Shown: positions 26,274-31,112 of the stretch, piece by piece | Layout of the letters: every line of letters begins with the position of its first letter | How positions within the stretch are numbered: position 1 is the first letter of the stretch | Notes under the pieces: model-generated | The model's database searches: none | The model's input: only the letters and a program-made list of their open reading frames with translations | Told to the model about the DNA's origin: nothing | Made by a program: the position numbers and the translations under genes | DNA from: Escherichia phage Killian | Reading direction: 5' to 3' (one strand) | Sequence record: OQ446694.1 | Length of the DNA: 64,000 nt

Positions 26274-27692
26274 TTATGGATAGGTATAGATGATACCAGT
26301 TTCTAAAGCAGTTTTATGAATGATGTATCCATTACGTGATTCTTGAACATCAACTTCTGGATAGTCTTTCATCATCTTCTGAAGAGTGTAACGATGCAGG
26401 TAGTATTTACTGTCTGGATCTTCAGTTTTCCAATCTTTACCTTCTTCGGTCATTTTTTGGATTTCATCCATAACCCACCAACCGCACCAGATATAAGCTG
26501 AAGTACGATGTGGAAGAGGATGAACATAAGGCAATTCACCTTCTGGTTCCGGAGCAACTTTATCAGTTACCTGAACTTGGCCTGTTGCTTTAACTGTTTT
26601 ACTATCATAGTCGGTTGCTGTAACGACAGCAGTAACTTCAATAGTTTGACTTCCAATAGATGAGGTGTCAACGGTGTATACGTTAGTTGACCCTTCTACA
26701 GGAGAAGAATCTTTCTTCCATGAGTATTCGATTTGTGCTTCTTCTGGAGCATCAGTGACATTAGCCGTAAATGTAGCCGAAGCATCTTGCTGAACGTTAA
26801 TAGAAGGAGGAGTCAATGTAACCTGCGGATTCATTGTCTTCTTATTAACTGTCAATGATACTTCATTAGAAGTAACTTCCTTTTCATTGTAATTTTCAGC
26901 CGTTACTTGGGCTACACACTTAACTGTTTTAGCTCCAACTGTGGTAGGAGTATAGTTAAATGTAGTAGTAGTTTCTCCATCGACCAGAGAACCGTCAACA
27001 TACCACTGATACGTAGCAGACGCTCCTGGTGGCTGTGAATCCAAGGCAGCAGTAAATTGAACTGGGGTTCCAATTACTCCGGCAGCAGGATTAGCAGGAG
27101 TTACGGCTAACGTAGTTGTCTGTGTTTTCTTATTAACTGTTAATGATACTTCATTAGAAGTAACTGTTTTTGCGTCATAATCTGTTGCTGTTACTTGAGC
27201 TACACACTTGATTTTTTTAACTCCGCTTGTGTCAGGAGTGTAATTGAATGTAGCGTCAGTTGCTTCGTCTACAGGAGAACCGTCAACGTGCCATTGATAC
27301 GTAGCGTTTGCACCTGATGGCTGTGAAGCTAAGGCAGCGGTAAATTCAATTGGAGTTCCAATCACTCCAGCATCAGGGCTACCAGGAGTTACAGCTAAAG
27401 TAGTTGTTTGTGTTTTATTTTTGACTGTGATAGTTGTCGTAGTTTCTGCTGTTTCAGGATCAGCTTCTGGAACTGTATTTGTTGCAACCACCTTAATAGT
27501 CTTTTGACCTGCAGGTCCTTTTAGTACATAGCTAAAAGTTGCTTCAGCTCCATCCTGTGGAACATTATCTACACTCCAAGCATAGGTAATAGTTCCACCT
27601 TCAGTTTGACCACTGGGTGTAGCAGTAAACTGCTTGGTTTCATCAATAACTCCTGTTGGGGTTTTAGGAGTTATATCAACTGTAAAAGTCAT
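26274..27692 (-). CDS. hoc: head outer capsid protein Hoc, with an extra tandem Ig-like domain
   Basis: 472 aa (recalled T4 Hoc 376 aa); two ~96-aa near-identical internal repeats. Confidence 0.88.
   Translation of the reverse strand: MTFTVDITPKTPTGVIDETKQFTATPSGQTEGGTITYAWSVDNVPQDGAEATFSYVLKGPAGQKTIKVVATNTVPEADPETAETTTTITVKNKTQTTTLAVTPGSPDAGVIGTPIEFTAALASQPSGANATYQWHVDGSPVDEATDATFNYTPDTSGVKKIKCVAQVTATDYDAKTVTSNEVSLTVNKKTQTTTLAVTPANPAAGVIGTPVQFTAALDSQPPGASATYQWYVDGSLVDGETTTTFNYTPTTVGAKTVKCVAQVTAENYNEKEVTSNEVSLTVNKKTMNPQVTLTPPSINVQQDASATFTANVTDAPEEAQIEYSWKKDSSPVEGSTNVYTVDTSSIGSQTIEVTAVVTATDYDSKTVKATGQVQVTDKVAPEPEGELPYVHPLPHRTSAYIWCGWWVMDEIQKMTEEGKDWKTEDPDSKYYLHRYTLQKMMKDYPEVDVQESRNGYIIHKTALETGIIYTYP
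26841..27416 (-). repeat. tandem direct duplication (2 x ~288 bp) inside hoc
   Basis: 26841-27128 and 27129-27416 are near-identical in DNA and encode repeats TQTTTLAVTP...SLTVNKK. Confidence 0.85.
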
Positions 27693-27701
27693 AAGTTATC
27701 C

Positions 27702-28382
27702 TTATTTTAATGTTACGAAAGAAGAATTGCGTGTTTCACGAATTAGAACTGATCCGTCACGATTAATGTAGTAAATTAAGCTAAATAAAGTTTGATGCGC
27801 AGACGCATGTTCAAAACTGGTTGGGCGAGATTTCCAATCTGGAGTTTCAGCAATCCATTGGTAAATCCACCAAGGAACAGTGCAGAATCCTGGATTTTTT
27901 CCAATCAGCTGAAGATTTGGGCTAAAGTTTTCCGGAAGAGTAAATACAGACGGCTTTTCAGATTCAATAATCTCAGCTACAGCCTGTTCGAATTTTTCTT
28001 CAACAAAAGGAGTATCTTCAATCAAAACATCGGTATTTTCAGGAATTTTATCCGTTTCTACTACTTCAATTTTAATGTCAGATTTAACCGGAGAATCAAT
28101 CAGAAGTGCTGCCTCTGGATTGACTTCTTCATCGTCATATTTTAATCCGTCTGCGGCATCAGCAGCATCGATTAAGTCTTTAATAGATAACCCATCAGTC
28201 TCTGGCATAGGTTCACTAGCGAGCTTCTGGAGGGCTTCTTCAATATCATTAACGATATTATCAAAAGATTTATTCTTTTTGACCTTTATACCAAACTGTT
28301 CAGCATATTCAGCTAATTTAGCTTTAGCTTCTTTATTATCATCAAGAGCCTTCAGCTTTGCAATATAATCTTTATCTATCAT
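27702..28382 (-). CDS. inh: inhibitor of prohead protease
   Basis: 226 aa as in T4 Inh; position between hoc and uvsW. Confidence 0.85.
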   Translation of the reverse strand: MIDKDYIAKLKALDDNKEAKAKLAEYAEQFGIKVKKNKSFDNIVNDIEEALQKLASEPMPETDGLSIKDLIDAADAADGLKYDDEEVNPEAALLIDSPVKSDIKIEVVETDKIPENTDVLIEDTPFVEEKFEQAVAEIIESEKPSVFTLPENFSPNLQLIGKNPGFCTVPWWIYQWIAETPDWKSRPTSFEHASAHQTLFSLIYYINRDGSVLIRETRNSSFVTLK

Positions 28383-28395
28383 AATATTTCCTCAG

Positions 28396-28403
28396 TATAA
28401 ATA
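28396..28403 (+). promoter_or_regulatory. T4 late promoter for uvsW
   Basis: exact TATAAATA 30 nt upstream of uvsW ATG. Confidence 0.65.
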
Positions 28404-28432: not shown

Positions 28433-29944
28433 ATGACTGACATTAAAGTACATTTTTATGATTTTAGTCACGTGAGAATTGATTGCGAAGAAAGTACATT
28501 TCATGAACTCCGTGATTTCTTTAGCTTTGAAGCTGATGGGTATCGTTTTAATCCGAAATACAAATATGGCCACTGGGATGGACGAATTCGTCTTTTAGAT
28601 TATAATCGCCTTCTTCCATTCGGTTTAGTCGGGCAAATTAAAAAGTTCTGTGATAACTTTGGCTATAAAGCCTGGATTGACCCGCAAATTAACGAAAAAG
28701 AAGAATTATCAAGAAAAGATTTTGATGAATGGCTTTCTAAATTAGAAATCTATTCAGGAAATAAAAGAATTGAACCGCATTGGTATCAAAAAGATGCAGT
28801 GTTCGAAGGATTAGTTAATCGTCGTAGAATTCTTAATCTTCCAACATCCGCAGGTAAATCTTTAATTCAAGCTTTGCTCGCTCGGTATTATTTGGAAAAT
28901 TATGAAGGCAAAATTCTTATCATTGTTCCAACAACTGCTCTGACAACTCAGATGGCTGATGACTTTGTTGACTATCGTTTATTCAGTCATGCAATGATAA
29001 AGAAAATCGGCGGTGGAGCATCAAAAGATGATAAATATAAAAATGATGCACCGGTCGTTGTTGGTACATGGCAAACTGTAGTAAAACAACCAAAAGAATG
29101 GTTCTCACAGTTTGGAATGATGATGAATGATGAATGTCATCTTGCTACAGGAAAAAGTATTTCATCTATCATATCAGGTTTAAATAACTGTATGTTTAAA
29201 TTTGGTTTGTCTGGTTCATTGCGCGATGGCAAAGCTAATATCATGCAGTATGTTGGAATGTTCGGTGAAATATTTAAGCCAGTAACGACCTCTAAATTAA
29301 TGGAAGATGGACAAGTAACTGAGTTAAAAATTAATAGTATTTTTCTTCGCTATCCCGATGAGTTCACTACTAAATTAAAGGGAAAAACTTACCAAGAAGA
29401 AATAAAAATTATTACTGGGCTCAGTAAAAGAAATAAATGGATCGCTAAATTAGCTATTAAGCTTGCGCAAAAAGATGAAAATGCTTTTGTCATGTTTAAA
29501 CACGTATCGCACGGTAAAGCTATTTTCGATTTAATTAAAAATGAATACGATAAAGTTTATTACGTATCAGGGGAAGTTGATACCGAAACCCGCAATATAA
29601 TGAAAACCTTAGCTGAAAACGGTAAAGGAATAATTATAGTAGCTAGTTATGGTGTATTTTCTACCGGTATTTCAGTTAAAAATCTGCATCACGTTGTTTT
29701 AGCACACGGTGTTAAATCTAAAATTATTGTATTGCAAACAATAGGTCGCGTATTACGTAAGCATGGTTCTAAAACAATCGCAACAGTCTGGGACCTCATA
29801 GATGACGCGGGCGTAGTTTCTAAATCAAAAACATCTTCTAAAAAATACTCGCATTTAAACTATCTTTTAAAACATGGACTTGATCGTATTCAGCGTTATG
29901 CTGATGAGAAGTTTAATTATGTGATGAAAGAGGTTAAACTTTGA
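28433..29944 (+). CDS. uvsW: UvsW DNA/RNA helicase (SF2)
   Basis: 503 aa; Walker A PTSAGKS and DECH box. Confidence 0.95.
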   Translation: MTDIKVHFYDFSHVRIDCEESTFHELRDFFSFEADGYRFNPKYKYGHWDGRIRLLDYNRLLPFGLVGQIKKFCDNFGYKAWIDPQINEKEELSRKDFDEWLSKLEIYSGNKRIEPHWYQKDAVFEGLVNRRRILNLPTSAGKSLIQALLARYYLENYEGKILIIVPTTALTTQMADDFVDYRLFSHAMIKKIGGGASKDDKYKNDAPVVVGTWQTVVKQPKEWFSQFGMMMNDECHLATGKSISSIISGLNNCMFKFGLSGSLRDGKANIMQYVGMFGEIFKPVTTSKLMEDGQVTELKINSIFLRYPDEFTTKLKGKTYQEEIKIITGLSKRNKWIAKLAIKLAQKDENAFVMFKHVSHGKAIFDLIKNEYDKVYYVSGEVDTETRNIMKTLAENGKGIIIVASYGVFSTGISVKNLHHVVLAHGVKSKIIVLQTIGRVLRKHGSKTIATVWDLIDDAGVVSKSKTSSKKYSHLNYLLKHGLDRIQRYADEKFNYVMKEVKL

Positions 29945-30633
29945 ATTATAAATTAATATATGATAATTTAATTAATAGAGCCCAGAATCGGGCTCGCCTT
30001 AATGGATACACTGAAACTCATCATATAATTCCTAGATGTATGGGTGGTACAGATGATAAGTGTAATTTGGTAGAACTAACAGCTGAAGAGCATTTTATAG
30101 CTCATAAACTTTTAGCTAAAATTCATCCAAACCATTACGGTATAATTAAAGCCGTTATATGTATGGGAATGAATTCAAATACTCATGAAAGACACGTTAA
30201 TAAATCTTACGCCTGGGAACGTCGTAAAATGGCAAAACTTCAATCAGGTGAAGGTAATCCATTTTACGGAAAACACCATACGGAAGAACATAAACAATAT
30301 ATGTCAAAACTCATGAAAAATCGTCCAATTACGTGGGGAAGTAAAATTAGTAAAACTAAAAGAATGAACCCAACAAAATGGACTGAAGAAGCTAAAAGAT
30401 TGCATTCTATCAATCAATCAGGTAAAAATAATGGCATGTATGGAAGGAAACATTCCGCTAAATCTATTCAGAAAATTAAAGATAACATGCCAGATAATTC
30501 AGGAGCTAATAACCCAGCTGCTAAACCTATAGAAGTAAATGGTGTTAAGTATAAATGCATGAAAGATGCTTCTAAAGCTACTGGATTATCAATGTACAAA
30601 CTAAGAATACTTAGAAAAACAGTTAATTTATAA
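29941..30633 (+). CDS. free-standing HNH homing endonuclease (NUMOD3 repeats, C-terminal HTH)
   Basis: 230 aa; ETHHIIPRCMGG...NLVELTAEEHFIAH HNH motif; start is TTG overlapping the uvsW stop. Confidence 0.8.
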   Translation: MNYKLIYDNLINRAQNRARLNGYTETHHIIPRCMGGTDDKCNLVELTAEEHFIAHKLLAKIHPNHYGIIKAVICMGMNSNTHERHVNKSYAWERRKMAKLQSGEGNPFYGKHHTEEHKQYMSKLMKNRPITWGSKISKTKRMNPTKWTEEAKRLHSINQSGKNNGMYGRKHSAKSIQKIKDNMPDNSGANNPAAKPIEVNGVKYKCMKDASKATGLSMYKLRILRKTVNL

Positions 30634-30658
30634 GGGCTTCGGCCCTTTGGAGAAAAAG

Positions 30659-30889
30659 ATGTTACTAGAATTTAAACAATTTCTTTATGAAGCTTCTATT
30701 GATGAATTTATGGGTAAAATTGCCTCTTGTCAAACAATAGAAGGTCTAGAAGAACTTGAAGCTTATTATAAGAAAAGAGTTAAAGAAACTGAATTAAAAG
30801 ATACTGATGACATCTCAGTCAGAGATGCTTTGGCAGGAAAAAGAGCTGAATTAGAAGATTCAGACGATGAAGTAGAAGAAAACTTTTAA
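30659..30889 (+). CDS. uvsW.1: UvsW.1 small acidic protein
   Basis: ATG at 30659 preceded by GGAG gives 76 aa starting MLLEFKQFLYEASIDEF; track start 30647 is a TTG. Confidence 0.85.
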   Translation: MLLEFKQFLYEASIDEFMGKIASCQTIEGLEELEAYYKKRVKETELKDTDDISVRDALAGKRAELEDSDDEVEENF

Positions 30890-30944
30890 ATTAAAAAAGG
30901 CCCAACCAAAAAGGAAGGGCCAAAACTATAGACTAAAGGTCACA

Positions 30945-31112
30945 CTATAGCAAAAGTTGAGTTTCATTTAATTGTTCTTCCGAACTTTCTGAAACTGGTA
31001 GTTCTTTAATGTAATTATAACAAGGCCCAGGATGTACAGGACCTTTGTCTGTTTCAACAACCAATGCAGAATCGATTGGAGTTTTACAGACAACGCAAAT
31101 CTTATCTGACAT
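30945..31112 (-). CDS. small zinc-ribbon-like protein (T4 uvsY.-2-like)
   Basis: 55-aa ORF absent from the track, found by hand: MSDKICVVCKTPIDS...PGPCYNY; AGGAG 6 nt upstream. Confidence 0.65.
   Translation of the reverse strand: MSDKICVVCKTPIDSALVVETDKGPVHPGPCYNYIKELPVSESSEEQLNETQLLL

Follow-up and report, generated by a model that had tools for sequence, protein, structure and literature searches.

A Mob-type HNH endonuclease gene inserted in the 3' end of uvsW of Escherichia phage Killian, and the recoded uvsW patch that probably travels with it

Homing endonuclease genes influence how T-even phages recombine and exclude one another's markers. In the 64,000-nucleotide stretch of Escherichia phage Killian analysed here (record OQ446694.1; hereafter the window), a predicted Mob-family HNH homing endonuclease open reading frame (ORF) of 230 amino acids with a TTG start (29941..30633, + strand) is flanked by the helicase gene uvsW and by uvsW.1. 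What does this ORF encode, how did it come to lie there, and does the adjoining DNA move with it? An initial annotation described it as a lineage-specific, free-standing homing endonuclease gene sitting exactly between the two genes and probably targeting uvsW-region DNA of relatives. We used comparative genomics and sensitive sequence analysis to investigate these questions. To judge from its sequence, the product is a protein of the T4 Mob family combining an HNH domain, two NUMOD3 repeats and an I-TevI-like helix-turn-helix (HTH). Together with the recoded 3' end of uvsW, this free-standing gene probably constitutes a single mobile cassette of about 810 base pairs (bp; about 29809-30618). 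The gene itself is an uncharacterised member of a well-known class and is already annotated publicly, T6 included; what the analysis adds is its insertion within a gene for which it supplies a surrogate tail, a linked patch in three genera, the bracketing of uvsW and a covarying hairpin.

An insertion within the last codons of uvsW

Comparison of the uvsW tail in genomes with and without the ORF (henceforth filled and empty) places the extra DNA at 29930-30618 (+ strand), inside uvsW. These 689 bp are missing in T4, T2 and RB55. In empty genomes, ...ATGAAA runs directly into ACAGTTAATTTATAA and then GGGCTTCGGCCC, giving the uvsW tail K T V N L stop, whereas in the filled window uvsW ends ...ATGAAA GAGGTTAAACTTTGA, that is K E V K L stop. 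The insertion point falls between uvsW codon 498 and the last five codons, so that the 503-residue helicase encoded here (28433..29944, + strand) takes its last five codons from the inserted cassette. This surrogate tail, AAAGAGGTTAAACTTTGA (29927..29944, + strand), is the left, diverged copy of a uvsW-terminus repeat and holds both a Shine-Dalgarno (SD) sequence, GAGG, and the TTGA overlap described below. The right copy is the original uvsW terminus, AAAACAGTTAATTTATAA (30616..30633, + strand), which is identical to the uvsW end of T4 and T2; this former tail and its stop codon now encode and end the endonuclease C-terminus, and it is the start of the right homology arm. The GGGCTTCGGCCC hairpin (30634..30645, + strand), which lies 3' of uvsW in empty genomes, is unchanged and now follows the endonuclease ORF; the SD GGAG (30649-52) comes after it, and uvsW.1 retains its own hairpin, SD and ATG. 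The junction named in the initial annotation was thus right, but the insertion lies inside the last uvsW codons and not exactly between the genes. In two other lineages, those of L052 and L056, the endonuclease likewise ends in the local uvsW tail (KQVDL stop and KQVEI stop, respectively), with a 19/21 direct repeat in L056, and in lineages where uvsW and uvsW.1 overlap as ATGA the endonuclease is joined through ATGA overlaps at both sides.

The TTG (29941-43) overlaps the uvsW TGA (29942-44) as TTGA, with GAGG (29930-33) 7 nucleotides (nt) upstream. No alternative in-frame ATG, GTG or TTG was found upstream of the paired histidines of the HNH motif, the first ATG being codon 34, which agrees with the earlier view of the TTG as the sole possible start. 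Since orthologues use ATG or TTG at exactly the same codon, with NTGA over the uvsW stop every time, the start call is sound. The W143 annotation has a shortened endonuclease ORF begun at an internal ATG.

About 500 Tequatrovirus records match uvsW at 90% identity or more. Megablast recovers the ORF beside uvsW at 97-100% identity in 48 phage records (about 10% of these), among them T6, which has an intact copy with five amino-acid differences. The approximately 450 empty records, including T4, T2, RB55, RB51, RB27 and AR1, match the flanks in two pieces with identical junctions. In RB55, a T4 record and T2, uvsW.1 starts 25 nt past uvsW with no gene in between, as the initial annotation had stated for T4, and the comparison with T4, T2, T6 and the RB phages that it had proposed reveals a presence/absence polymorphism among close relatives at exactly this site, with no identical ORF in T4. 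The qualifier lineage-specific does not hold, as the gene is found in T6 and the other Tequatrovirus carriers, and at least four further T4-like lineages have orthologues of 55-70% amino-acid identity in this position, with carriers including Escherichia phage PSD2002 and Morganella phage Rgz1. Each of the ten orthologous loci inspected (including Roth16, P0002, P0004, P0006, P0007, P0009, P0011, P0012 and P0013) sits at the junction of uvsW and uvsW.1 with the NTGA overlap. Existing GenBank labels include 'homing endonuclease', 'mobD/MobE' (PST) and 'mobile endonuclease E', and a literature search found no paper describing a uvsW-junction endonuclease gene.

Could the ORF instead be encoded in an intron splitting a once-continuous uvsW? 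Such a reading would accord with the 'group I intron endonuclease' annotation in vB_EcoM-G28 and G2540-3 and with a weak match to TIGR01453 (29.9 bits). However, this score is far below the cut-off of 56.05 bits and the match is confined to the NUMOD/HTH part of the protein; Rfam models gave no match (E <= 1) across 29500-31000; each of the 31 T4-like loci fetched, like the literature, has uvsW and uvsW.1 as distinct ORFs; and the ORF is translationally joined to uvsW. The separation of the flanking ORFs in all these genomes also rules out the insertion as the cause of a uvsW/uvsW.1 split. We consequently rejected the intron as hardly credible, and regard the ORF as free-standing, that is, outside any intron or intein. 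The vB_EcoM-G28 record carries its label despite having no intron.

A recoded uvsW patch linked to the gene

We aligned uvsW and 1.3 kb of downstream sequence from 22 Tequatrovirus genomes, 12 of them filled and 10 empty. Over the 200 nt immediately upstream of the insertion, the divergence between the two groups (dxy) is 0.19-0.21 and the fixation index (Fst) 0.72-0.95, against 0.02-0.04 and about 0 elsewhere in the alignment (first 100 nt downstream: 0.003); uvsW.1 displays no differentiation linked to the endonuclease gene. The fixed differences between filled and empty genomes lie without exception (29/29) in the 115 nt at 29809-29923, and 500 random 12/10 splits yielded 0. This recoded 3' patch of uvsW (29809..29929, + strand), a candidate target and immunity region, also alters the protein, with the motif GVKPKSANTKKKYVH, kept in every other T4-like lineage sampled, becoming GVVSKSKTSSKKYSH in the filled type. 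A Klebsiella-phage lineage (Roth16 versus L010/L012) possesses the same one-sided patch, 34-36% diverged with nearly all differences synonymous, and a third lineage (L052/L053 versus L017/L018/L031) has it as well, identity dropping from 96-98% in the gene body to 73% over the last 200 nt.

The opposite end of uvsW furnishes a positive control. T4 carries segE between inh and uvsW, and it is segE, not segD as the initial annotation had it, that neighbours uvsW; the place of segD is between genes 23 and 24 (Edgell et al. 2010, PMC2988022, Table 1). SegE is a proven endonuclease with uvsW as its target (PMC2988022). When the same genomes are split into segE+ and segE-, dxy is 0.22-0.26 and Fst 0.83-1.0 over uvsW nt 1-150, with no differentiation past nt 150. 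Because the patch linked to the mob gene matches this signature round a proven endonuclease, the reading of homing into uvsW gains support, and the perfect linkage of patch and gene is consistent with the proposal that uvsW-region DNA of relatives would be targeted. The two features expected of homing, a co-inherited flank and an altered target in the carrier, are both present if, as we infer, the patch contains the target. The segE and mob genes assort independently, with four of four combinations seen, and uvsW is flanked by two independent endonuclease-linked recoded patches. In the window itself segE is absent, inh (ending at 28382) and uvsW (from 28433) being only 50 bp apart as had been noted before. 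The first 150 nt of its uvsW (28433-28582) are of the segE-less type, this segment being 22-26% diverged between segE+ and segE- genomes. In the T6 record AP018814, segE is mislabelled 'tail tape measure protein'.

As for the origin of the patch, no donor was found, the identity to every other sampled lineage, filled or empty, being at most 73%; import of the filled-type patch from a sampled genus was accordingly rejected. A megablast search with the patch alone retrieved, besides the 48 filled records, four phages without the homing endonuclease gene (HEG), namely LH2 and OES_C-1/2/3. In LH2 (locus L051, 2468-2632), the uvsW 3' end is chimeric: the distal and most diverged part, VVSKSKTSSKKYS, is of the filled type, the proximal 60 nt and the tail are of the empty type, and the crossover falls within a 23-nt identical island. 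OES_C-1/2/3 match the same portion of the patch at the same identity, LH2 being the one inspected. These alleles are possibly products of aborted homing, and chimeras of the LH2 type would favour a cut in the distal patch, at about 29815-29852. At the insertion point, five of five filled lineages have a changed GTAATGAAA motif, an alteration that would favour a proximal cut site.

The encoded protein, its conservation and its expression

The domain content given in the initial annotation is borne out by the ORF list and the domain matches. Pfam detects NUMOD3 twice (E = 1.3e-13, exceeding the cut-off), with a weak match to the I-TevI DNA-binding domain, and for most homologues the precomputed Pfam matches comprise NUMOD3 only. 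In an alignment of 60 sequences (the ORF and 59 homologues), H28, N42, H51 and H55 are invariant, giving the conserved His...Asn...His residues of HNH enzymes, with both H27 and H28 present in the protein. A profile built from this alignment matches the I-TevI DNA-binding domain (1.4e-6) and, among HNH domains, that of McrA (9.6e-5), with further alignments to those of a group II intron maturase and Cas8f-HNH. PHROG 655, 'homing endonuclease', is matched at 4e-61, and tblastn relates the protein to the Mob family (MobA-E), with 42% identity to RB59 mobE over amino acids 1-168 (3e-26) and 44% to T4 mobB (orf D of X01804) over 136 amino acids (9e-24). Along the + strand, the HNH motif YTETHHIIPRCMGGTDDKCNLVELTAEEHFIAH spans 30007..30105 (amino acids 23-55), the first NUMOD3 repeat 30220..30306 (94-122, Pfam) and the second NUMOD3-like repeat, GKNNGMYGRKHSAKSIQKIK, 30418..30480 (about 160-180, aligning to the I-TevI DNA-binding domain); a putative C-terminal I-TevI-type HTH DNA-binding module follows at 30517..30594 (193-218). 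An AlphaFold model (AF2; confidence score, pLDDT, 90) predicts that residues 25-61 form a beta-beta-alpha unit and that a strand-helix module lies at the C-terminus.

One stretch over the HNH motif may have a distinct history. Window positions 30010-30059 are nearly identical (51/53, 96%) to T4 mobB, a gene located between genes 55 and a-gt, whereas protein identity to MobB is otherwise 44%, and orthologues of other genera have synonymous-site differences over the same 50 nt; for these reasons the sequences suggest gene conversion between paralogous mob genes.

The ratio of non-synonymous to synonymous substitution (dN/dS) is 0.04-0.18 when Tequatrovirus copies are compared and 0.10-0.32 when genera are, 36 of the 43 variable sites in Tequatrovirus fall at third codon positions, and the ORF is intact in 11 of 12 copies. 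The gene evolves under purifying selection, and the HNH catalytic residues, whose mutation the initial annotation had named as grounds for doubt, are unaltered. Decay of the gene does occur: in Escherichia phage BF15 (L039, 2501-3189) a 4-bp deletion causes a frameshift and a stop at codon 196. This shortened copy would fit an inactive passenger that, once homed, no longer cuts and stays because it is embedded in the uvsW/uvsW.1 translation unit, where loss needs a precise deletion. The weak TTG start and the persistence of defunct endonucleases in T4, such as I-TevIII (PMC2790892), point the same way. We nevertheless consider a passenger unlikely in view of the low dN/dS at both levels of comparison, the conservation of every catalytic residue, the small share of broken copies among those sampled, and the retention across genera of the hairpin described below, of the start codon and of its overlap with the stop of uvsW. 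The polymorphism, the intact catalytic residues and the linked patch together speak for a free-standing homing endonuclease, as the sequences have it.

Purifying selection and long retention at one junction in several genera might also be expected of a nuclease or DNA-binding protein domesticated by the phage, for instance to keep out competing phages or satellites, or to adjust the UvsW : UvsW.1 ratio. The insertion does re-wire uvsW.1 translational coupling where the genes overlap, and one report (PMC10448857) mentions homing-endonuclease-related domains in phage-satellite conflicts. Against this, the gene occurs sporadically, in about a tenth of Tequatrovirus and irrespective of segE, as selfish elements typically do, and our data contain no sign of a second function, making domestication quite improbable.

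With regard to expression, the T4-type late promoter TATAAATA (28396..28403, + strand), 30 nt before uvsW, is the sole exact late promoter on the + strand from inh to the end of uvsW.1. Because it precedes uvsW, the endonuclease gene is promoterless and presumably late, and the uvsW late promoter is the likely source of the transcript that carries it. TATAAATT at 29946-53 was rejected as an embedded late promoter: it lies past the start codon, encodes N-Y-K-L and is an inexact match. Within the ORF, an internal hairpin, GAGCCC-AGAATC-GGGCTC (29978..29995, + strand), starts at ORF nt +38. We folded each sequence separately, scanned all 30-nt windows and tallied the stem positions. All of the orthologues (10/10) have a GC-rich hairpin at ORF nt +32 to +38, with stems of 6-9 bp, commonly a GAAA loop and at least six distinct stem sequences; in 9/10 no other 30-nt window of the ORF is as stable, each stem position exhibits 2-4 pair types, and the peptide encoded across it is variable. 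RNAalifold on a MAFFT alignment of the region returned no structure, with the stems misaligned. The hairpin presumably acts as an attenuator, a stability element or a pause site. A second predicted hairpin of 11 bp at 29908-29942 pairs GAAGUUUAAUU, in uvsW, with GGUUAAACUUU (-9.4 kcal/mol, z = -2.5); it includes part of the SD as well as the first two TTG bases.

The flanking gene calls are straightforward. UvsW matches the Pfam domains UvsW_N (3.9e-43), ResIII, DEAD and Helicase_C, and uvsW.1 (30659..30889, + strand; 76 amino acids), with its true ATG at 30659, matches UvsW-1 at 7.3e-30. In the record of Klebsiella phage Roth16 (PQ657790), uvsW is mislabelled 'U3 small nucleolar RNA-associated SSU processome protein 25'. 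Further upstream in the window, hoc (26274-27692, - strand) encodes 472 amino acids with internally repeated Ig-like segments, that of RB55 having 376, and both lengths are found among the related genomes fetched. The closest match to the window overall is vB_SsoM_113, at 97.8% over 14 kb, and none of the records matched was identical.

Proposed mechanism and comparison with known systems

We propose that the gene would be transcribed late, from the uvsW late promoter with no promoter of its own, and translated at a low level through re-initiation coupled to the end of uvsW translation, with the hairpin that starts 32-38 nt inside the ORF lowering expression further, much as the terminator within T4 mobE would. 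During mixed infection, the NUMOD3 repeats and HTH of the protein might bind the uvsW 3' end of genomes lacking the gene, and its HNH domain would nick or cut that end; T4 mob enzymes reportedly nick. Repair by recombination from the carrier would then copy the gene plus the adjoining recoded uvsW patch, while the carrier would be protected by having its own site rewritten, split by the insertion, or both. The same element would have moved among T4-like genera, into the uvsW/uvsW.1 junction each time.

Several observations weigh against this account. The Pfam HNH model (PF01844) scores 16.7 bits (E = 0.008), below its gathering cut-off of 21.4. The patch varies by lineage in length (about 117, 145 and 211 nt) and position, and the filled patches of different genera have no clear relation to one another; the patch could be foreign uvsW sequence imported with the element instead of a set of selected immunity changes. 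The internal hairpin has no U-tract downstream and its role as a terminator is unproven, and sequestration of the start was rejected as a general mechanism, since the 11-bp hairpin is confined to Tequatrovirus and absent or weak in nine orthologues. The BF15 frameshift belongs here too, and cleavage itself, the position of the cut and the choice between a nick and a double-strand break are matters that we infer. Even so, we hold a single mobile cassette of gene and patch to be the probable explanation.

More tentatively, and with doubts of our own, we suggest that the element might be a genus-hopping cassette of three parts, the recoded uvsW tail, the 5' RNA hairpin and the ORF, written into a translationally coupled gene pair. 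The resident terminus would serve at once as protein tail, right homology arm and, in overlapping lineages, uvsW.1 coupling signal; the hairpin, kept by compensatory change in every lineage, would be a dedicated attenuator common to MobE-like genes; and the HEG-less chimeras would reflect aborted homing, which would put the cut 80-115 bp from the insertion point, within the distal part of the patch.

These findings leave the general picture of phage homing endonucleases as it was. The gene, which T6 has intact and T2 and T4 lack, could account for local exclusion of markers in the uvsW region; uvsW, bracketed by independent cassettes each with a recoded patch, offers a natural example of gene ends rewritten without breakage; and the covarying hairpin is a putative regulatory element shared with mobE and open to testing. 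To our knowledge, activity has been demonstrated for MobE alone within the Mob (HNH) group.

Among known systems, the closest parallel is T4 MobE, whose gene lies between nrdA and nrdB. T4 mobE lacks a promoter, overlaps the stop codon of nrdA and contains, 27 nt past its AUG, an internal hairpin terminator; its product nicks nrdB (PMC2790892; PMC2988022). The gene described here shares with it the N-terminal HNH domain (42% over 168 amino acids), the lack of a promoter, a start over the upstream gene's stop, a stable hairpin about 30 nt inside the ORF and the co-conversion of flanking DNA (PMC2790892; PMC2988022). It differs in its locus and target gene (uvsW as opposed to nrdB), in starting with TTG and not AUG, in having a hairpin without a U-tract, and in its C-terminal half, where the two NUMOD3 repeats and the I-TevI-type HTH are unalignable with MobE past about amino acid 168; furthermore, the insertion here lies in the coding end of the neighbouring gene and supplies a surrogate tail. 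I-HmuI (PDB 1U3E) and I-TevI, the source of the DNA-binding domain structures (PDB 1I3J/1T2T), are both intron-encoded, unlike the present gene, and I-TevI has a GIY-YIG catalytic domain in place of HNH, structural matches to the HNH part being weak. In T4, MobA and the gene 60 bypass element reportedly move as one cassette, the alteration being said (Bonocora et al. 2011) to protect the carrier from cleavage. Here too a Mob-type gene and an adjacent alteration of a neighbouring gene would move together, the alteration in this case being a 115-nt recoding with a replaced C-terminal tail, as against a 50-nt untranslated insertion, and the protection of the carrier presumed. T4 SegE, finally, resembles the present system in its victim gene, uvsW, in its sporadic distribution, and in the sharply bounded patch, about 25-30% diverged, of 115-150 nt of uvsW that abuts the endonuclease gene in full linkage. 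It belongs to an unrelated catalytic family (GIY-YIG) and its gene, absent from the window, lies at the opposite end of uvsW.

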